From the NCBI GenBank assembly GCA_026015185.1, contig JAOZGX010000047.1, forward strand, positions 3,475 through 67,474: 64,000 bases of DNA, written 5' to 3'. Positions 15,318 to 45,308 of the stretch are shown here, in pieces. Made by a program: the position numbers and the translations under genes. The notes beneath the pieces were generated by a model that was given only the letters and a program-made list of their open reading frames with translations, had not been told where the DNA came from and searched no databases. This DNA comes from Candidatus Bathyarchaeota archaeon (lineage in GTDB: Archaea; Thermoproteota; Bathyarchaeia; 40CM-2-53-6; RBG-13-38-9). The stretch's first letter is position 1. The number at the start of each line of letters is the position of its first letter.

Positions 15318-16403
15318 ATGGATCTTGAAAAAAGATTGAGTCAAATCACCAAGAATGTAAAAGAGATTGTGACTATTGAAGAGTTAAGAAAACTCATTGA
15401 AACAGAGAAACGCCCTAAAGCATACTGGGGATTTGAGTGCTCCGGCCTGATGCATTTAGGAATGGGGCTTGTATGTGGTAATAAGATCAGGAATTTAGTA
15501 GATGCAGATTTTGATTTCACTATTTTTCTAGCTGATTGGCATTCTTGGATTAACAATAAACTAGGAGGAGATATAGAGAATATTAGGATTTGCGGTGAGT
15601 ATTTCAAGCATTGCTTCACTGCAATTGGAATCCCACCTGATAAAGTAAATTATCTATGGGCCTCTGATTTGGTAAAAGGTTCTGACTATTGGGAGAAGGT
15701 AATAAAGATCGCCAAAGAGACATCTCTTCAAAGAGTATCAAGAGCATTACCTATAATGGGTAGGCAACTAAAGCAGGAGGATATCGAAGCTGCATCAATA
15801 TTCTATCCTTGTATGCAAGCAGCTGATATTTTTCAGATAGGTGTTGATGTTGCGTGTGCTGGTATGGATCAAAGAAAAGCACATATGCTAGCTAGAGATG
15901 TTGCCGAGAAATTAGGTTTTAAGAAAAGTATAAGCTTGCACACACCGCTCTTGATGGGTTTGTCTGATCCAAAAAAATCTAGTGAGGTTTATGATGAGGA
16001 TTCAGATTTAAGTAAGCAAATAACAACAAAGATGTCAAAAAGTATCCCTGGAAGCTCAATATATATTCATGATTCTCCAGAGGAGATAAAGAAAAAAATT
16101 CAAAATGCATACTGCCCACCCAAGCAAGTAGAAGAGAACCCTATGATTGAAATTATTAAATACATCATTCTTCCTGAAAGGACAGAATTCGAAGTTGTAA
16201 GACCTGAGAAATATGGTGGAAATATTAGCTTCACCAGTCTTGACGAAATAATAGAATTATATCGAAAGGAGGCTATTCATCCGCTCGATCTTAAGAATAG
16301 CGTGGCTGAAAGCCTCATAGAAATATTGAAAAGAGTCAGAGATTATTTTGAAAAGAATCCAGAGCCTTTAGAAGCCATGAATAAGATAGAAGTTACAAGA
16401 TAG
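15318..16403 (+). CDS. tyrS: Tyrosyl-tRNA synthetase (archaeal type)
   Basis: Class I HIGH-like motif (GLMHLGMG) and KMSKS (KMSKS present). The C-terminus is near-identical in pattern to M. jannaschii TyrRS (NPMIEI.KY...PEK.GG...LKN.VAE). Confidence 0.85.
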   Translation: MDLEKRLSQITKNVKEIVTIEELRKLIETEKRPKAYWGFECSGLMHLGMGLVCGNKIRNLVDADFDFTIFLADWHSWINNKLGGDIENIRICGEYFKHCFTAIGIPPDKVNYLWASDLVKGSDYWEKVIKIAKETSLQRVSRALPIMGRQLKQEDIEAASIFYPCMQAADIFQIGVDVACAGMDQRKAHMLARDVAEKLGFKKSISLHTPLLMGLSDPKKSSEVYDEDSDLSKQITTKMSKSIPGSSIYIHDSPEEIKKKIQNAYCPPKQVEENPMIEIIKYIILPERTEFEVVRPEKYGGNISFTSLDEIIELYRKEAIHPLDLKNSVAESLIEILKRVRDYFEKNPEPLEAMNKIEVTR

Positions 16404-16589
16404 AGTCGATCGACAACGACAAGTATTAAAAGAAAGCTAGAGAGAATAGAGAAAGTTCTAGATAAAATATCATCAAGTTCTGAGAGAGGCATCCCTATAA
16501 TAGTAGAAGGAAAAAAAGATGAATGTTCTTTAAGACGATTACAGATACAAGGCAAGATAATTTGCATTCAATCAACTAGGGAAAATCTG

Positions 16590-16829
16590 ATGGACTCGTT
16601 GAATGTTGTAAGGAATTTTAATGAAATACTAGTGTTAACTGATTTTGATCGTAAAGGAGAAGAACTAGCAAAATTTATAGAACAGGAACTCTCTTCCATG
16701 AGAATTAAGTCCAACTTTAGGATATGGAAAGAGTTGAAGGGGCTTACAAGCCATGATCTCAATGAAATTGAGGGGTTATCAAAATATGTTGAGAATCTTA
16801 GGCTTAAAATGAGAAATGAAGATAGATAA
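16590..16829 (+). CDS. Small Toprim-domain protein (N-terminus probably extends upstream to about 16425)
   Basis: A Toprim-like motif IPIIVEGKKDE plus DFDRKGEEL is encoded in frame. It lies partly upstream of the first ATG and in the same frame as tyrS. Confidence 0.45.
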   Translation: MDSLNVVRNFNEILVLTDFDRKGEELAKFIEQELSSMRIKSNFRIWKELKGLTSHDLNEIEGLSKYVENLRLKMRNEDR

Positions 16830-16847
16830 AATAGAGCGATATATGAT

Positions 16848-16965
16848 GGGCCGGTAGTTCAGCCCGGTATACCTTTAATACAAAGGGCCAAAGAACGTCC
16901 GGTTTGCAAGGTATTTTACCCAAAATGCCGGAAAGCCGCGGGTTCAAATCCCGCCCGGTCCACCA
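16848..16965 (+). tRNA. tRNA-Ala (UGC) with two intron-like insertions (D-arm ~23 nt; anticodon-loop region ~18 nt), CCA encoded
   Basis: Acceptor stem GGGCCGG/CCGGUCC with a G3:U70 pair. Anticodon stem UCCGG/CCGGA with loop UUUGCAA, and T-arm GCGGG-UUCAAAU-CCCGC. 118 nt against 77 nt mature. Confidence 0.8.
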
Positions 16966-17281
16966 TAAAAATTATCCGGACCCATTTTTCTAAAGATATC
17001 TAATAGAGTACATTATTCAAATTATAGCGCTCGCAAAATAACCATATACACATATAAATATCATGAACTTTAATGCATAATACAATTTGGTGTTTAAAAG
17101 GCTTAAAGATAATGTTTTATTGTTTAGTTAAGATTGAGAGAAAAGAATATTTAAGAGGAGTTTTGGATGGGCAAACAAAGAATGGTTAAGAAACCTAAAA
17201 AGAAAAAAGAGAAGGAAAATAAAGCCTAGTTGATGCCACTCGGTCAATCAAAATTATAGTTGTAGAAGATTTACTGCCAAA

Positions 17282-17893
17282 CTATTTTTTACTTTTTTGA
17301 CCTATTGGGCAAGCTTTCATGCATTCAAAACAATCATAGAAGATGCCTGAAGTTGTGGATTGCCAAATCCTCCAAAATGTGGGGTCCAAAAAATAATTTT
17401 TTAGATAATTGTCGATATCATTCGTATCCACTATTTTTTTTCTAAGACCAATCAAGCCAAGTATGCCGTATTTTATGTTCTCCTTAACGCATTTATTGAC
17501 ATCAACCCCATCATCGGTTATAGCATTAACTGGACATGCACTAGCACAAAACTTTTCACAACCTTTGCAAAGATTTTCATGATACTCTTCATCCTGCTCC
17601 AATTCAGCTGAAGTCAGAACTGTAGCTAACCTAACCTTGGTCCCTAAATTTGGAGTTACTAATAATCGGCAATACCCCAAGCAACCTAAGCCTGCCTTTG
17701 CTGCAAGATGTCTATGTGAAACATCACCGAAAAGACCTTTAGTTTCAATGCTCATTTCGACTGGGATATATGGTGAAAATGTTATTGCTTCATATCCTTT
17801 CTTTTCAAGAAATCTAACAAGCCTATAGGATATTTGACTTAATTCTTGCATTATACCATAGGTGTCGTATTGAAGTGGCCTGATATTTTTCAA
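17282..17893 (-). CDS. 4Fe-4S cluster protein (QueG/reductive-dehalogenase-like ferredoxin domain); N-terminus likely extends upstream
   Basis: CxxCxxxCP motifs (CKGCEKFCASACP; CFECMKACP). The open frame continues upstream to about 18040 with conserved-looking sequence and no canonical start. Confidence 0.45.
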   Translation of the reverse strand: MKNIRPLQYDTYGIMQELSQISYRLVRFLEKKGYEAITFSPYIPVEMSIETKGLFGDVSHRHLAAKAGLGCLGYCRLLVTPNLGTKVRLATVLTSAELEQDEEYHENLCKGCEKFCASACPVNAITDDGVDVNKCVKENIKYGILGLIGLRKKIVDTNDIDNYLKNYFLDPTFWRIWQSTTSGIFYDCFECMKACPIGQKSKK

Positions 17894-18249
17894 TCTGAAA
17901 GTACTATTTGAATGCTTACATCCAATTACTATGGCTTTATTGAATTGGTTAATATCTTTTTTATCTTCTATTTTATAATCAGAACTGCCGAAATCGCATA
18001 TACCAACTAAATTAGCGCCTGATTTCTCTGCGCATTCCTTTATCTGAGTGGATAATTTAAAAATTAATACACCTTCTGCTTATCATCAAATTCATTATCA
18101 TTAATTTTAATTCTATGGAATATATATCGGTATTCTCTTTTTTTTAGTTTGTATTATGTAATAAATCACAAAATTTTAGAGTAATAACCTACAATTAAGT
18201 GAAATTTTTAATTCTTTGCATTCTATTATGATAATTGGGCAACTAAACT

Positions 18250-19544: not shown

Positions 19545-20162
19545 CTATTCAAAATTCTGGTCCAGTTTCTTTTCTTCCGATTCTTTGATAATATCTTCTA
19601 CATCTTTTTTTTCTAGAAACAAAAAGTTCAGATTTTGTTCGATCGATTTTGATGCTTTTGTATATTTGCTACTCTCAATTTTTCCTTCTTTCTTTCCAGT
19701 TCTTATCTCTACTAAAAAGTTTGTTAATTCATTGATTTGTCTGTCTAATTCTTCTTGTCGTTGCTTCATGCTACTAATGAATTCATTATTCTGTCCCTTC
19801 AATGAATCTATCGATTGCTTCTGATTGGCTTTGAGATTTTCATAGATTTCTTTACTTACTTCTTCCTTCTCCAGCATTGCCTCCAGGGCATCCATTCTGC
19901 TTCGGAATGTATTGAGCTCTTTTATCATTTGTTCAGCCTGAATTTTCCATTCTGGTATGATTACTATCTCATCTTTATTCGTCATCATTTGCTCTGCGGA
20001 ATATTTGACTAATCTGCCTTCACTTTGATCTACCTTAATGGATTCTAATTCGCCATCAGAATTCTTTAAAATCGCCACAACTTGACCTAAATAACGTCCA
20101 TAGATGTCCCTAGTCTTTTTTCCAAAGAAATGTTTCATTTCAATATTAGAAAATGAAAACAT
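19545..20162 (-). CDS. cdvA: CdvA (PRC-barrel + coiled-coil cell-division protein)
   Basis: N-terminal PRC-barrel-like region (GRYLGQVVAI...IVIIPEW) followed by a long coiled coil and an acidic C-terminus. Adjacent to a cdvB. Confidence 0.7.
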   Translation of the reverse strand: MFSFSNIEMKHFFGKKTRDIYGRYLGQVVAILKNSDGELESIKVDQSEGRLVKYSAEQMMTNKDEIVIIPEWKIQAEQMIKELNTFRSRMDALEAMLEKEEVSKEIYENLKANQKQSIDSLKGQNNEFISSMKQRQEELDRQINELTNFLVEIRTGKKEGKIESSKYTKASKSIEQNLNFLFLEKKDVEDIIKESEEKKLDQNFE

Positions 20163-20200
20163 ACTTTCAACGACTGTTTATTTTATTTCCTAAAAGAGTA

Positions 20201-20818
20201 TCAGATTTTTGATTCCTTAGTAGGTATTGGTGGAATCTCTGGAAGCGTTTCCTTCATCTTCTGTTCAGCTACAGCCGTGGCTTCATCCAAGATTTTATTA
20301 CCTTCTTCTGTTGGAATTGATGTATCAACTGATTGATCAGTAGCATCTCCTATCTCTACAACCATATTTTGTAATGTTTCACCAATGTCTGATAATTCAT
20401 TAGAGATGTCAGGAAGAATGCTCACAAGCTGTGACTTGATTCCGTCAATTACGCTAAGAACAGATCCCATTAGATATGTGTACTCTCCAAAGTCTTTAAT
20501 CGTCTCCAGTCGTAATTTTACCTGTTCCAGAGCAAGTTGACTTTTTATTGTTGTCATCATAATTTTCCGTATTTCTGCACATTCGTTCGCATACATTGTA
20601 GCCATTTCATTTTTCTTTGATTGCAAAGCAGAAACACATTTCTTGTATAATTCTTTGTCTCTATTTTGTAATTGATATGATTTTCTCTCTAAATGCTTAA
20701 GTTGAACAGAAAGTCGATGGAGAGTCGAAGTAATCTTTCGTTTCATTGGGGTTGGATGTATAGCTTCCTTTATTCTTTCTGTAAATGATGGTTTTTTTCT
20801 AAACACTATTTTTCTCAA
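20201..20818 (-). CDS. cdvB: CdvB (ESCRT-III/Snf7 family) with proline-rich MIM2-like C-terminus
   Basis: Snf7 core (MYANECAEIRK.., LALEQVKLRLETIKDFGE) and a C-terminal LPEIPPIPT motif. Confidence 0.8.
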   Translation of the reverse strand: MRKIVFRKKPSFTERIKEAIHPTPMKRKITSTLHRLSVQLKHLERKSYQLQNRDKELYKKCVSALQSKKNEMATMYANECAEIRKIMMTTIKSQLALEQVKLRLETIKDFGEYTYLMGSVLSVIDGIKSQLVSILPDISNELSDIGETLQNMVVEIGDATDQSVDTSIPTEEGNKILDEATAVAEQKMKETLPEIPPIPTKESKI

Positions 20819-22505: not shown

Positions 22506-23645
22506 TTAAAGAGCTTTAAACTCCTCAAACCACTTCTCATAATGCCTGATAGTATTAGGAGAAATGCTTGGTTTTCTTCTCTTGAAAATTTCTGAGAAAT
22601 CATTCATGTCAATATATCTTGGAGCAGTATTCTTGTCTTCCGGATTGCCATTCTCAAATAGATCTCTTACCACTTTGATTTGAGCTGATTGAAAGATATC
22701 TCTTATATCGCTTCCAGAGTAGCCAGCAGTCATTTTTGAAAGTTCATTGAAATCAACATTGGGAGATATCTTAAGATTTTTTGAAAACAGCTTAAACATT
22801 TCTGATCTTGATATAGCATCAGGTAAAGGAACAAAGATCCTTTTCTGAAACCTTCTAATGAATGGGTGATCCAGTGCCCAAGGTTTATTGGTGGCACCTA
22901 TAACGTAAGAATGTGTAGATTGGTTTTTGTCCAAAATCCCGTCCATTTCTTTAAGAAATTGATTTCTCGCTCTAGCTTCGCCACCCACTTCACCAACACT
23001 ATATCTAACTAAAGAATCTATCTCATCAATGAAAATGATCGCTGGTTGATCATTAGTGCTTTTTTTCTTAGCATCTTTAAAAAGTTGTGCAACATTCTTT
23101 TCGGATTCACCAAGCCATTTTGACATTATTGAAGCTGCATCGACACAAAAGAAAGTTGCATCGATTTCGGTAGCAATAGCCGCAGCCAGTAATGTTTTTC
23201 CACAACCAGGAGGACCAAAAAACAATATACCTCCTGGCCACCCAAGTGGAAACAGATCAGGTCTTTTTGCAGGAAAAACTATTGATTCTTCTATAGCCTT
23301 TTTTGCTACTTTTAAATTAGCAATGTCGCTCCATCTAACGGAGGGCTTTTCGGTCAATACTAATTGATCAAATTTAGCTTTACCTTCATCAGAGGGTAAT
23401 AAAGTTGAGTCTTGACTTTCTGGTTGGCCACTTAAGGATTCAATCCTTTTTTTGTAAGACTCCACATGTTCCATGTATATTTTATTTTGAGGTGAATTCG
23501 GATATAGTGCACAAAGTTTCAGTAAAATTTCAATAGCCCTTTGAAATTTTGCAGTCGCTAATCCTCTGGAACCTTGTTGATCTAATTGAATAGCCTCTGA
23601 AGCATATTTGACAGCTAATTTTTCTAATTCTTCAGAAGCGGACAT
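22506..23645 (-). CDS. cdvC: CdvC / Vps4-like AAA+ ATPase with N-terminal MIT domain
   Basis: MIT-like helical N-terminus, Walker A GPPGCGKT, Walker B IIFIDEID and second region of homology. ATG at 23645 is preferred over the upstream GTG. Confidence 0.85.
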   Translation of the reverse strand: MSASEELEKLAVKYASEAIQLDQQGSRGLATAKFQRAIEILLKLCALYPNSPQNKIYMEHVESYKKRIESLSGQPESQDSTLLPSDEGKAKFDQLVLTEKPSVRWSDIANLKVAKKAIEESIVFPAKRPDLFPLGWPGGILFFGPPGCGKTLLAAAIATEIDATFFCVDAASIMSKWLGESEKNVAQLFKDAKKKSTNDQPAIIFIDEIDSLVRYSVGEVGGEARARNQFLKEMDGILDKNQSTHSYVIGATNKPWALDHPFIRRFQKRIFVPLPDAISRSEMFKLFSKNLKISPNVDFNELSKMTAGYSGSDIRDIFQSAQIKVVRDLFENGNPEDKNTAPRYIDMNDFSEIFKRRKPSISPNTIRHYEKWFEEFKAL

Positions 23646-23678
23646 AAACACCACAAGACCATTTTTTATTCAAGCTTA

Positions 23679-24233
23679 TTATTCGATTATCACTTTTCCT
23701 TCCTTTTTCAGGTAATCTACCGCTCTTTTCACATCCTCTGGAGTAACTTCTAACCAAGAGGCACATTCTGTAATGCTTAAATCACCTTTACGTTCTTTCA
23801 GATAATCATAAACTCGCTCATACAATGGCAATGCTTCTCCATCCGTTGTTAAAGCTACAGGTTCAGGTTTGTTTGACTCTTTGGAGAATGTTGGGAAATC
23901 TGGTATATCGGGGAATTGTTCTTTAATTCTCTGTTCAGCAAGTATATTTGATTCTTCTAAAACCTTTTTTGCTTCTTGATTTGCAGCAACTTCCTCAATA
24001 TTTCTTACCGATGGTACAGCTGCTTCGGTACTTAACTCGTTTAGCATAGAGTTGACATCTTCAATACCACTAGCCACTTCGGGAACAAAATCTGAAATCC
24101 TATTTTCAGTTTCTTTTAAAATGCTCATTACTGGGTTTAGATTTGTCAGAACGTCTTTAAATTCGGAAATCCTTTGAAGTCTAATAACAACCTTTTCTAA
24201 AGAAAGCTGACTACTTATTGCTAGTTTTACCAT
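23679..24233 (-). CDS. cdvB: CdvB paralog (ESCRT-III) with MIM2-like motif and C-terminal winged-helix-like domain; real N-terminus encoded upstream (to about 24446) without canonical start
   Basis: The annotated ORF starts mid-Snf7 domain. The upstream in-frame sequence encodes ...LKDKLSQVIYQLNDQ...AKIYANECAEIRK, contiguous with MVKLAISSQ. The C-terminus contains FPDIPDFP and LSITECASWLEVTPEDVKRAVDYLKKEG. Confidence 0.6.
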   Translation of the reverse strand: MVKLAISSQLSLEKVVIRLQRISEFKDVLTNLNPVMSILKETENRISDFVPEVASGIEDVNSMLNELSTEAAVPSVRNIEEVAANQEAKKVLEESNILAEQRIKEQFPDIPDFPTFSKESNKPEPVALTTDGEALPLYERVYDYLKERKGDLSITECASWLEVTPEDVKRAVDYLKKEGKVIIE

Positions 24234-24465
24234 TTTCCGTATTTCTGCACATTCATTCGCATAGATTTTTGCATGTGAAAAATCCTTAGTAACTTGAGCG
24301 CCTACACACTTTTGGAGGATTTCTTTGTCTCTTTGCTTAAGTTTTGATATAGAGTTTTCTAGGTTTTCTAATTGATCATTGAGCTGGTAAATTACCTGCG
24401 ATAATTTATCTTTAAGAGATTTAGAGGGGAGAATCTTTCCCTTTATCCTCTCGAGGATTGAAATC

Positions 24466-25458
24466 TCAAAAATCCTCCCTTATTTTAACTATAATTTTAT
24501 CTTTTGGTTCATCTGAAGTTGTTTGGGTTTCTTCTTCCTCAATGGTTGAAGAAGTCATGTCGTCTTTTGGTTCTTCTGAAGTGGCCTGGGTTTCTTCTTC
24601 ATCTATGGTTTCTTCTTTATCCGTGGTTTCTTCTTCTTCCTCTTCTTCTTCCTCTGTTGAAGTTACATCATCCTTTAATTCTTCGTCATCCGTGGTTTTT
24701 TCTTCATCCATGCTTGTAGAGGTCATGTATTCCTTTGATTCATCTAAAGTTGTTTGGGTTTCTTCTTCCTCAATGGTTGAAGAAGTCATGTCGTCTTTTG
24801 GTTCTTCTGAAGTGGCCTGGGTTTCTTCTTCCTCTGTTGTTGAAATAACTACCTTAGTTTCGTCAAAGCTAATAATTTCTTTAGAAATGTCATCAATCTT
24901 ATTTTTCTCTTTTAGTGCACTCTCAATATGCTTTTGGATGATTTCTTGACAAGGTTTGAATGTCACCTCGTCCATTTCTCCCGAATGAAATTGCATTTTA
25001 TTATTGGCAAAAATAATTTGAAGTTCATTTATTTTATTGATCAGATCTTCCTTTCTCTTTTCTGCTTTTTCTAAAATATTTTCACGCGACTCTTTTATTT
25101 TTGAAAATGAGCTTTCATAATTGCTTTTCAATGATTTATAGAATTCTTCACGTATTTCTCCAGATTTATAAAGTTCATCTAGTGCATTGATTCTCTTTCT
25201 CAAAGTATTAAGCTGTCTTAGTATCCCTTTTGCCTCTTTTTCCCATGGCGGCAGGCAAATAATTCGCCCTTGCTCAATAGCCACTTGATTTATAGGGTAC
25301 TCAATGAATTCGCCTTTTCCTGATAGTGTCTTAATGGATTCAGCTTTATTATTAGCATCTAACTCAAGATTAATTATCTTGCCTATTGTTCTTCCGTAGG
25401 CATCAAAAACAGACTCGCCTAAGTATTTCTTAATTTCTTCCAAATTTTTTTCCTCCAA
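24466..25458 (-). CDS. CdvA-like paralog with long acidic Thr/Glu-rich repetitive C-terminal tail
   Basis: N-terminal PRC-barrel-like region plus coiled coil, homologous to 19545-20162 (IICLPPWEKEAKGILRQLNTLRKRINALDE vs IVIIPEWKIQAEQMIKELNTFRSRMDALE). Then about 130 aa of TTEEEETQ(A/T)TS(E/D)EPKDDMTSS repeats. Confidence 0.6.
   Translation of the reverse strand: MEEKNLEEIKKYLGESVFDAYGRTIGKIINLELDANNKAESIKTLSGKGEFIEYPINQVAIEQGRIICLPPWEKEAKGILRQLNTLRKRINALDELYKSGEIREEFYKSLKSNYESSFSKIKESRENILEKAEKRKEDLINKINELQIIFANNKMQFHSGEMDEVTFKPCQEIIQKHIESALKEKNKIDDISKEIISFDETKVVISTTEEEETQATSEEPKDDMTSSTIEEEETQTTLDESKEYMTSTSMDEEKTTDDEELKDDVTSTEEEEEEEEETTDKEETIDEEETQATSEEPKDDMTSSTIEEEETQTTSDEPKDKIIVKIREDF
24500..24600. 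repeat. Direct repeat copy 1 (~100 bp, ~95% identical to 24731-24831) inside the CdvA-like tail coding region
   Basis: catctgaagttgtttgggtttcttcttcctcaatggttgaagaagtcatgtcgtcttttggttcttctgaagtggcctgggtttcttcttc recurs with 2-3 substitutions. Confidence 0.85.
24731..24831. repeat. Direct repeat copy 2
   Basis: See copy 1. This encodes the repeated peptide KDDMTSSTIEEEETQTT. Confidence 0.85.
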
Positions 25459-25474
25459 TTTTATTTTTTTAATA

Positions 25475-26143
25475 TCAGGTTTGTGATTGTTCTCTGGTTC
25501 TATAATCCGAGGCTTGAGTGGAATCTGATTCCATAGATGTAAAGTCTGGGAATTTCTCTTTCACTCTCTGCTCAGCCACTGTTTCAGCCTCGCCTAAAAT
25601 TTTGCTAGCTTCTGAGCTTGGTGCTTCTGTATTAATATCTTGACCAGTGGCTTCACCTATCTCAACTACCATACCATTGAGTGTCTCCCCAATATCATCA
25701 AGTTCATAGGACATTTCAGGCATTATACCACTGATTTGTGTCTTCACAGATCTCACGACTTCGGTAACAGGTCCCATTAAAGCAGCAAATTCTCCAAATT
25801 CACGAATTGTTTCTAATCTTAATGATACTTGTTCTAAGGCAAGTTGACTCCTAAGAGTTATTGCAGCCATCTTTCTTACTTCAGCACACTCATTAGCGTA
25901 CATGGCAGCTCGAGCAGAGTCTTTTGTCATTTGGGATGAGACACATTTATCAAATAATTCTCTGTCGTGTCGTTGCATCCTCATTACAGCATTTTCTAGC
26001 TTATTTTGTTGAGTTCGTAACCGGTAAATAGTTTTCGAAATTTTTTCCTTAAGACTCGGTTGCTGCTGTAGTATACCTGAGAATTTTATATTAACGGGTG
26101 GACTTTCATCTTTATCCCAGTTTTTTATCCTATTACTTGGCAA
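25475..26143 (-). CDS. cdvB: CdvB (ESCRT-III/Snf7 family)
   Basis: Snf7 core (MYANECAEVRKM, LALEQVSLRLETIREFGE) and a C-terminal FPDF motif. 222 aa. Confidence 0.8.
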   Translation of the reverse strand: MPSNRIKNWDKDESPPVNIKFSGILQQQPSLKEKISKTIYRLRTQQNKLENAVMRMQRHDRELFDKCVSSQMTKDSARAAMYANECAEVRKMAAITLRSQLALEQVSLRLETIREFGEFAALMGPVTEVVRSVKTQISGIMPEMSYELDDIGETLNGMVVEIGEATGQDINTEAPSSEASKILGEAETVAEQRVKEKFPDFTSMESDSTQASDYRTREQSQT

Positions 26144-26412: not shown

Positions 26413-26751
26413 ATGTCTGAAAGTTCAAATGATACAGAGAAAGAGGCAGAAGTAGCACCAAAAGCAAGAACTCCTATCCCCCCAGACACCATACTAATAG
26501 GTAGCAAGCCAGTCATGGCCTATGCAACGGCTGTTATGATGCATTTCCATGGAGGTAGGAATACCTTAACTATTAAAGCCAGAGGTAGAGCCATTAGCAG
26601 AGCAGTCGATGTAGTCGAAGTTGTACGAAGGAGGTTCTTTGGAGGTAAATTAGCAGTCAAAGATGTACAAATTGGAACCCAAGCTCTAGGTGAGGGCGGA
26701 GACGTAAGGAACGTATCTACAATAGAAATCAAAGTGGAGAAAAAAGATTAA
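26413..26751 (+). CDS. albA: Alba DNA/RNA-binding chromatin protein
   Basis: 112 aa with Alba core (IGSKPVMAYATAVMMHFHGG..TIKARGRAISRAVDVVEVVRRRF). Confidence 0.85.
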   Translation: MSESSNDTEKEAEVAPKARTPIPPDTILIGSKPVMAYATAVMMHFHGGRNTLTIKARGRAISRAVDVVEVVRRRFFGGKLAVKDVQIGTQALGEGGDVRNVSTIEIKVEKKD

Positions 26752-44813: not shown

Positions 44814-45308
44814 ATGAAAACAGATGATAATCTTAAAGCTGCTTTTGCAGGAGAGTCGCAAGCTAATAGAAAGTATACAGCTTTTGCCATAAAGGCAGAG
44901 CAAGAAGGATTTTCTCAGGTTGCAAAGCTGTTCAAAGCTGCAGCTGATGCAGAGACTGTGCACGCACTTAATCATTTAAGGACCTTAAAGGAAGTCGGAT
45001 CTACTATTGAAAATCTTAAAGTGGCTAAAGAGGGGGAAACGCATGAGTTCAAGGAAATGTATCCAGATTTTATTAAAAATGCGGAAGAAGAGAATCGTGC
45101 TGATGCTAAATTAACATTTAGTTATGCGAACAAAGTTGAAGAAGTGCATGCACAATTATATCAAGAAGCTACAGAAGCTGTTGAGTCGGGTAAAGATTTG
45201 CCTGATTCTGATTTATTCGTATGTCAGACTTGTGGTTACACGGCAAAAGAAGCCCCAGACGTATGCCCAGTATGCAGCTCACCTAAAGAACGGTTCAAGA
45301 AAATCTAA
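44814..45308 (+). CDS. Rubrerythrin with C-terminal rubredoxin-like domain
   Basis: Diiron ferritin-like motifs (ESQANRKY; ETHEFKEMY) and C-terminal CQTCGY...CPVCSSP. Confidence 0.85.
   Translation: MKTDDNLKAAFAGESQANRKYTAFAIKAEQEGFSQVAKLFKAAADAETVHALNHLRTLKEVGSTIENLKVAKEGETHEFKEMYPDFIKNAEEENRADAKLTFSYANKVEEVHAQLYQEATEAVESGKDLPDSDLFVCQTCGYTAKEAPDVCPVCSSPKERFKKI

Follow-up and report, generated by a model that had tools for sequence, protein, structure and literature searches.

Three genes with conserved N-termini upstream of any canonical start codon

A 64,000-nt stretch of a Candidatus Bathyarchaeota archaeon (assembly GCA_026015185.1, contig JAOZGX010000047.1, positions 3,475 to 67,474; hereafter, the window) contains three genes whose reading frames are open, and conserved as protein, far upstream of the first canonical start codon. 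They encode a Toprim mini-protein, a 4Fe-4S protein (hereafter, the Fe-S protein), and the ESCRT-III protein CdvB. We scanned all six frames of the window from stop to stop and defined the leader of each frame as the codons from the upstream in-frame stop to the first ATG, GTG, or TTG. The outliers in leader length were three real genes:

16404-16829, plus strand: open frame of the Toprim mini-protein; 62 start-less codons, first canonical codon ATG 16590
17282-18079, minus strand: open frame of the Fe-S protein; 62 start-less codons, first canonical codon TTG 17893
23679-24479, minus strand: open frame of CdvB; 82 start-less codons, first canonical codon ATG 24233

ATG, GTG, and TTG together make up 4.75% of the codons in the window's genes, and the chance of finding 54-76 codons without any of them is 0.02-0.07 per gene; three such leaders are not explained by chance. 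The next ten genes by leader length (11-41 codons) are all consistent with canonical starts, as judged from the coordinates of NCBIfam model matches. Hence, about 3 of 58 genes in the window are affected, and the start-codon rules of this organism are not changed in general. Further genes of the window may carry shorter truncations, in which a canonical codon closely follows a near-cognate start.

A sequence-only reading of this DNA had proposed that the three genes have a conserved N-terminus upstream of the first canonical codon, and family models and orthologs indeed cover all three leaders. The leaders are protein coding and under purifying selection, because family models extend into them, because their identity to relatives is similar to that of the rest of each protein, and because many of the changes within them are synonymous. 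The comparison with orthologs that the same reading had called for showed proteins that begin not at the annotated internal Met or Leu but at the position of an ATT in the leader or 1-3 codons away from it, and this holds for all three genes. Relatives (their loci are designated by L numbers) share the feature: leaders without ATG, GTG, or TTG are also found in L012-16, L022, L021, L017, and L104. In some relatives, an in-frame stop lies just upstream of the ATT and therefore leaves no canonical option. Protein identity to the window is 89-98% for independent assemblies of close relatives and 57-69% for more divergent relatives; since the ATT arrangement is common to the latter as well, it is old. 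All three genes are intact and full length, and taken together, these comparisons make it very likely that each starts at a near-cognate codon read as methionine.

The Toprim mini-protein gene follows tyrS in the same frame

The start region of the Toprim gene contains two candidate codons downstream of the tyrS stop:

16401-16403, plus strand: TAG stop of tyrS, sharing the Toprim open frame; 21 nt 5' of the ATT
16416-16418, plus strand: ACG, alternative start candidate; aligned with the ATG of L019
16425-16427, plus strand: ATT, favored start; aligned with the ATG of P0106/L105
16425-16829, plus strand: Toprim gene (PRK04017/RNase M5-like family); 134 aa from ATT 16425, 79 aa from ATG 16590 in the public annotation

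The open frame matches Pfam Toprim over residues 32-100 (27.7 bits; cut-off, 23.1), and the PRK04017 models of NCBIfam begin at residues 7-12 (51-92 bits, under their cut-offs). Both the conserved Glu motif and the DxD motif of a Toprim domain are present, as VEGKKDE and LTDFD, respectively. As the sequence-only reading had stated, the translation contains IPIIVEGKKDE before the first ATG, and the frame runs open back to the tyrS TAG. Its claim that ATT and ATA are the only possible starts stood in part: both codons are present, but ACG and ATC are there too. Compared with L017, the leader is 65% identical (18 synonymous and 19 non-synonymous changes) and the rest of the protein 67%. The arrangement is kept in L017-L019 at 56-67% protein identity, and ATT 16425 itself in L015, L022, L017, L018, and L019; L017 has an in-frame TGA four codons before this ATT.

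The Fe-S protein gene has a Shine-Dalgarno-like motif before its ATT

The Fe-S gene is read from the minus strand, and a Shine-Dalgarno (SD)-like motif precedes its proposed start:

17282-18064, minus strand: gene for a QueG/RdhA-like 4Fe-4S protein; 260 aa from ATT 18064, 203 aa from TTG 17893 in the public annotation
18062-18064, minus strand: ATT, proposed start; 1-3 residues from the N-termini of all orthologs
18070-18074, minus strand: AGGTG, SD-like; 5 nt upstream of the ATT

A match to a reductive-dehalogenase (RDH) model sets in at residue 39 of the open frame. Full-length QueG and RdhA models stayed below their cut-offs (TIGR00276, 44 bits with a cut-off of 200; TIGR02486, 36 bits with a cut-off of 160), and matches to Fer4 Pfam models were under the gathering scores. 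With its 4Fe-4S Cys motifs conserved, the protein is by sequence a relative of QueG/reductive-dehalogenase-like proteins that lies outside the family cut-offs. Six orthologs (P0112-P0114 and P0117-P0119) have N-termini within 1-3 residues of ATT 18064. Among the orthologs of 57% identity, the leader is 49% identical in L020 (rest of the protein, 60%) and 40% in L021 (rest, 62%). In L021, a TGA in the same frame immediately precedes the homologous ATT, and the frame reaches a canonical codon only 24 codons further on; L020 and L106 have a GTG or ATG one to three codons before this ATT. The peptide ECAEKSGANLVGICDFGSSDYK, which the sequence-only reading had placed before the TTG, was found in the translation; the frame, which it had described as open to about 18040, in fact extends to 18079.

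The ENA call P0112 (MWIF...) takes the in-frame TGA at L021:115-123 as Trp; with this TGA read as a stop, as in the standard code, the ATT right after it opens the frame. The Trp reading probably comes from a code-4 gene model applied to an AT-rich short contig.

In the sister population L022 (91% nucleotide identity), the Fe-S gene (L022:6538-7335, the homolog of 17282-18079) has two nonsense mutations (TCA to TAA and TGG to TAG), and truncated products that match these mutations occur in several other assemblies. The gene appears to be dispensable and in the process of being lost in some strains.

cdvB has two closely spaced ATT codons around the cdvA stop

The region between cdvA and cdvB holds the following elements:

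23679-24473, minus strand: cdvB (ESCRT-III, C-terminal winged helix); 264 aa from ATT 24473, 261 aa from ATT 24464
24390-24392, minus strand: ATT taken as the cdvB start by NCBI (MCW4032623.1, 237 aa, MYQLND...)
24462-24464, minus strand: second ATT (ATT#2); begins 2 nt after the cdvA stop
24466-24468, minus strand: TGA stop of cdvA, between ATT#1 and ATT#2
24471-24473, minus strand: first ATT (ATT#1); overlaps the last codons of cdvA (GATTTTTGA)
24474-24478, minus strand: GGAGG, SD motif; within the 3' end of cdvA

Snf7/CdvB models begin at residues 6-30 of the open frame, with Pfam Snf7 matching residues 30-193 at 29.0 bits (cut-off, 27.3). The NCBIfam CdvB equivalog scores 144.6 bits, under its cut-off of 370, so the protein is by this measure a divergent member of the family. 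The gene lies in a cdvA-cdvB-vps4 context (cdvA at 24466-25458 upstream, a Vps4-like AAA ATPase at 22506-23654 downstream), in keeping with its assignment as CdvB. The sequence-only reading had put CdvB at 23679-24489; a conserved N-terminal helix is indeed encoded in the start-less leader, but the frame is open only to 24479. Across six relatives, the leader is 56-79% identical to that of the window, about as much as the rest of the protein (58-65%) or more, and cdvB differs from that of L022 by 8 non-synonymous and 28 synonymous changes. About 80 CdvB orthologs align from the first residues, and the arrangement is kept in L012-14, L023, and L102-104 at 59-69% identity.

The two ATT codons are backed by different lines of evidence. 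Most of 80 orthologous Bathyarchaeia loci have a GTG, ATG, or TTG start exactly three codons before a conserved F/I-S-I motif, which is where the window has ATT#1; the first codon of this motif in the window is ATT#2. The GGAGG motif, kept in all relatives of the window's clade (L012-16, L022, L023, and L102-104), abuts ATT#1 with 0-nt spacing and lies 9 nt before ATT#2. Moreover, the homolog of ATT#2 is the only possible cdvB start in three other clades: L067 and L071 read TAA-ACT-ATT with GGAGG 8 nt upstream, and L084 is built likewise, with TAA-ACC-ATC. The cdvB start of L043 reads GGAGG + 9 nt + ATT. L104 has ATA at the second position and ATT at the first, where the codon is also constrained by cdvA coding. 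While the alignment backs ATT#1, the SD geometry and the forced cases (L067, L071, L084, and L043) back ATT#2, which we slightly favor.

Two further observations concern the neighborhood of this gene. cdvA (24466-25458, minus strand) encodes a long, acidic, repetitive C-terminal region with EEEETQ[AT]TS[ED]EPKD repeats; in L015/L016 this region is not of the same length as in the window. Besides cdvA-cdvB-vps4, the window contains, at 19545-20818 and 25475-26143 (minus strand), another CdvA-like/Snf7 pair together with a CdvB1/B2-like paralog, and the gene order is the same in L012, L015, and L103.

Putative ribosome-binding sites precede two of the three proposed start codons

We scanned the leaders of 58 window genes for in-frame near-cognate codons with a match of at least 5 nt to the SD consensus GGAGGTGATC at an aligned spacing of 12-16. 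The only new start candidates were the Fe-S ATT 18064 and cdvB ATT 24464; besides these, the scan matched a single ATT, immediately next to the ATG of the gene at 44814. A match of at least 5 nt at the same spacing occurs in 6 of the 55 other window genes. The strongest ribosome-binding site in the window is that of Alba (GGAGGTGA + 6 nt + ATG), and its geometry equals that of GGAGG + 9 nt before cdvB ATT#2. Putative ribosome-binding sites at functional spacing are found for the Fe-S gene (AGGTG + 5 nt) and for cdvB ATT#2, and the Toprim candidates have no such match.

Standard gene calls truncate all three proteins

Gene callers restricted to ATG, GTG, and TTG consequently truncate the three proteins, and the effect on gene calling that the sequence-only reading had anticipated is seen in the NCBI, JGI, ENA, and Logan calls alike. 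In the NCBI records (locus tags NWF08_), the Toprim protein (MCW4032614.1, next to tyrS, MCW4032613.1) is a 79-aa hypothetical protein, the Fe-S protein (MCW4032615.1) a 203-aa hypothetical protein, and CdvB (MCW4032623.1) a 237-aa Snf7 family protein. Across the resources, truncated calls comprise 79 aa for Toprim, 189 or 203 aa for the Fe-S protein, and 184 aa (JGI and Logan) versus 237 aa (NCBI) for CdvB, so that the first 55-80 residues are lost in standard calls. The same 79-aa Toprim call recurs in at least 11 cluster members, and the JGI, ENA, and Logan calls of close relatives are cut at internal canonical codons. For cdvB, NCBI's PGAP already used a non-canonical start, because the MYQLND of MCW4032623.1 corresponds to the ATT at 24392-24390.

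Near-cognate codons occupy homologous starts in other Bathyarchaeia

We compared the open frames in relatives' loci all versus all; antisense shadow ORFs and stop-interrupted fragments were dominant among the results, which were filtered and read by hand. CTG, ATT, and ATC recur at homologous starts in other Bathyarchaeia, and ATA and ACG occur in single contigs only. In the alpha subunit gene of 2-oxoacid:ferredoxin oxidoreductase, a stop is followed by a few codons (one codon in 9 of 12 loci) and then by CTG in 12 of 12 loci (L041, L047, L053, L060, L063, L070, L079, L085, L088, L089, L090, and L093). In the match to TIGR03710, model position 2 falls opposite residue 8, whereas a canonical codon appears only after 22-113 codons. 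The pattern suggests a conserved CUG start, in most cases with AAGGT + 7 nt ahead of it. At the Alba start, GAGGAGGTGA + 6 nt + CTG is found in L051, L053, and L085, and ATG, GTG, or TTG in other loci and in the window (26413-26751); all four NTG codons are therefore represented at one homologous start. A CdvB1/B2 paralog in L050 has GGGGTGA + 6 nt + CTG.

cdvB itself varies further. In a clade of ~13 closely related contigs, its ATG is replaced in single contigs by ATA (L027), ACG (L038), or GTA (L025), the last of which is not a single-step near-cognate codon; the codons on either side differ at synonymous third positions or not at all. In a further clade (L039, L040, L052, and L082), the anchor codon is ATC. 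Which near-cognate codon is used tracks the G+C content of the genome: ATT and ATC starts belong to clades with 30-40% G+C, CTG starts to clades with ~50%. The distances among clades with non-canonical cdvB starts are as large as those that separate them from clades with canonical starts. In a strict SD screen (match of at least 6 nt) of ~1,100 ORFs from relatives' loci, we found 6 in-frame matches versus 0 out-of-frame controls; the signal is real, but at this threshold the screen is too insensitive to give a prevalence.

Alternative explanations

The sequence-only reading had left a choice between AUA/AUU initiation and systematic sequence errors. Metagenome-assembled genomes (MAGs) can carry errors, and errors might have removed canonical starts or shifted frames locally; L018, assembled at a coverage of 1.18x, has an in-frame TAG in the Toprim leader. 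However, assemblies made independently, with different samples and pipelines (L015 and L016 come from two JGI samples, L022 from another), have three start regions identical to those of the window or a few substitutions apart, and relatives at 57-69% identity have the same ATT, likewise without a canonical start. The same start regions recur in L012-14, L017, L021, L023, and L102-104. We therefore give errors next to no weight and side with AUU initiation, which is supported by leader conservation, by the alignment of the ATT, by upstream stops, and, in 2 of the 3 genes, by an SD motif. A different objection is that the annotated internal ATG and TTG codons are the true starts and that the upstream open frame is untranslated, as the NCBI, JGI, ENA, and Logan calls imply for most copies. 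Such starts would cost the Toprim protein its catalytic Glu motif (IVEGKKDE), CdvB its helix 1 and more of the ESCRT-III core, and the Fe-S protein ~60 conserved N-terminal residues; the leaders, moreover, are conserved as protein, with many synonymous substitutions, and their frames are open in all relatives. We regard internal starts as very unlikely. Decay into pseudogenes that have lost their start codons is suggested by the nonsense mutations in the Fe-S gene of L022 and by the Fe-S fragments called in several other assemblies, but all three frames of the window are intact over 134-264 codons, relatives at 57-69% identity combine the ATT arrangement with intact frames, and cdvB resides in a conserved cdvA-cdvB-vps4 cluster with few non-synonymous changes relative to L022. 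Such decay is hardly credible, and only for the Fe-S gene is it a real concern.

Recoding might also supply the N-termini, either by read-through of the tyrS TAG, by a +1 frameshift from cdvA into cdvB at UUU UGA, or by a ribosome that starts at the ATG of a short upstream ORF and shifts into the Fe-S frame. In the window, tyrS and Toprim share a frame, the end of cdvA (AGG GAG GAU UUU UGA G) resembles the shift site of bacterial prfB with GGGAGG 2 nt upstream, and the Fe-S ATT has an ATG in another frame 21 nt upstream. A tyrS-Toprim read-through fusion was rejected because the in-frame arrangement is not conserved: in L017, tyrS and Toprim do not share a frame, and a TGA separates them. A prfB-like shift was rejected because the slippery UUU_U, present as UUU UGA in the window, L015, L022, L102, and L104, is UUC_U (UUC UGA) in L012-14, L023, and L103, and because most Bathyarchaeia cdvB genes start independently, with their own GTG or ATG at the aligned position and cdvA ending upstream. 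Entry into the Fe-S frame from the upstream ATG would require a +1 shift in the window and a -1 shift in L021. The recoding explanation is as hard to credit as decay. More weight goes to the possibility that near-cognate initiation is correct and only the codon is misassigned, with Toprim starting at ACG 16416 or cdvB at the ATT 24392 chosen by PGAP; we think this unlikely but a serious contender. ACG 16416 lies opposite the ATG of L019, and is invariant in three lineages (window, L015, L022, L017, and L018) even though no Thr codon is rarer here; GGGTG + 6 nt + A[C/T]G is common to L018 and L019. ATT 16425, in turn, lies exactly opposite the ATG of the 45%-identical L105 (IKRKLERI versus MEKKLERI), and the sole differences between the window and L022 upstream of the Toprim gene fall in the two codons between ACG and ATT, where both would be non-synonymous, whereas the next 25 codons are conserved. 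As for cdvB, ATT 24392 is probably too far downstream, because the 24-27 residues upstream of it are conserved across ~80 orthologs.

Several points weigh against near-cognate initiation as we propose it. The exact codon is ambiguous for two of the genes (ATT#1 or ATT#2 in cdvB, ATT or ACG in Toprim). The scan of 58 window genes found no SD match reaching 5 nt for the Toprim candidates; all that precedes the ACG is GATC + 4 nt. The SD consensus GGAGGTGATC was derived from the window's own genes and not from the 3' end of the organism's 16S rRNA. In the sister population L022, two nonsense mutations make the Fe-S gene a pseudogene, so relaxed selection on this gene is real. Finally, aIF1 of Sulfolobus solfataricus discriminates against AUU in vitro (PMC4705826; PMC6237735), so efficient AUU initiation in an archaeon cannot be taken for granted (PMC4705826).

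Other features of the window

Rfam places a tRNA gene at 16848-16962 (plus strand, 49.5 bits), and ARAGORN found no tRNA in the window. By eye, this is a tRNA-Ala(UGC): the G3:U70 identity pair is present, the CCA end is encoded, and of its two introns one interrupts the D-loop and the other lies at the canonical 37/38 position. A very basic peptide, MGKQRMVKKPKKKKEKENKA, is encoded by a 20-codon ORF at 17167-17229 (plus strand) that has GAGGAG 6 nt ahead of it; the ORF is kept in L015 and L022 with one synonymous change and may represent a real small protein. A search of genome contigs with the neighboring PHP-domain protein as query returned only distant relatives (at most 57% identity), without synteny.

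Discussion

In the favored explanation, translation would initiate at AUU 18064 in the Fe-S gene, at AUU 24464 or 24473 in cdvB, and at AUU 16425, or alternatively ACG 16416, in the Toprim gene, with the initiator tRNA reading the near-cognate codon as methionine. SD pairing would place the ribosome on the weak codon through AGGTG + 5 nt (Fe-S) and GGAGG + 9 nt (cdvB). Translational coupling is known at overlapping or adjacent gene pairs in prokaryotic operons, and coupling to a terminating ribosome may plausibly help cdvB, where the cdvA stop falls between the two ATT codons, and Toprim, where the tyrS stop is 21 nt before the ATT. Coupling would not be a general explanation, because the Fe-S gene has its own upstream intergenic region.

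Near-cognate initiation is a known mechanism, of which the window genes would be new examples; what is unusual is its density, its conservation, and its occurrence in core genes of one archaeal lineage. Our literature search found no report of non-canonical starts in Bathyarchaeota. In model bacteria, near-cognate starts number only a handful per genome, and AUU-type starts in about 3 of 58 genes would be much above this. One close parallel is bacterial infC, encoding IF3, which starts with AUU and is autoregulated through initiation fidelity (PMC4705826). As in infC, a conserved near-cognate AUU would start an otherwise normal gene, and the weak codon would tie expression to the stringency of start selection. 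Unlike infC, the genes described here belong to an archaeon, in which a eukaryote-type aIF1 polices the codon instead of IF3; they have no relation to initiation factors and show no evident autoregulatory logic, and there are three in 64 kb rather than a handful per genome. In Deinococcus deserti, N-terminal proteomics identified non-canonical starts that include an ATC for dnaA and a CTG for rpsL, in addition to infC (PMC2830850). There, too, several conserved housekeeping genes with ATC, CTG, or ATT starts had been mis-annotated by standard callers and were found by comparing conserved N-termini; D. deserti, however, is a bacterium with experimental proof, whereas the evidence from Bathyarchaeota is comparative. 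The discrimination described for S. solfataricus aIF1 concerns the same step, in which a 30S complex positioned by SD pairing checks the codon against the anticodon of Met-tRNAi in its P site. AUU is rejected there, but the genes described here imply that AUU, and CUG in relatives, would be accepted often enough to express essential proteins.

Annotation practice already leaves room for such starts. NCBI translation table 11 permits ATT, ATC, ATA, and CTG, and PGAP uses them occasionally, as it did for the cdvB of this MAG. Its choice still drops the 24-27 conserved residues, and the Toprim and Fe-S proteins were left truncated at canonical codons. Family assignment, structure prediction, and metabolic or cell-biological inference for this uncultured group thus start from damaged sequences. 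In other Bathyarchaeia, Alba, CdvB paralogs, and the alpha subunit of oxoacid oxidoreductase raise the same concern.

The recurrence of near-cognate codons at homologous starts raises, as a tentative possibility that we would not yet count on, that Bathyarchaeia as a whole have relaxed their start-codon stringency, with SD-positioned CUG, AUU, and AUC (possibly also AUA and ACG) serving as regular starts for several percent of genes and the codon drifting with G+C content. If so, core genes would be included (cdvB, Alba, and the oxoacid:ferredoxin oxidoreductase alpha gene), and a sizeable share of the Bathyarchaeia proteins in public databases would be N-terminally truncated. It would further point to a lineage-specific change in the checkpoint that involves aIF1, the initiator tRNA, and the 30S subunit, in a group related to the eukaryote-like TACK archaea. 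With near-cognate initiation at cdvB, the start codon of a cell-division gene would be weak and sensitive to initiation fidelity. Should the frequency seen in the window hold genome-wide, Bathyarchaeia would be a natural system for studying how an archaeal, eukaryote-like initiation apparatus tolerates near-cognate codons.

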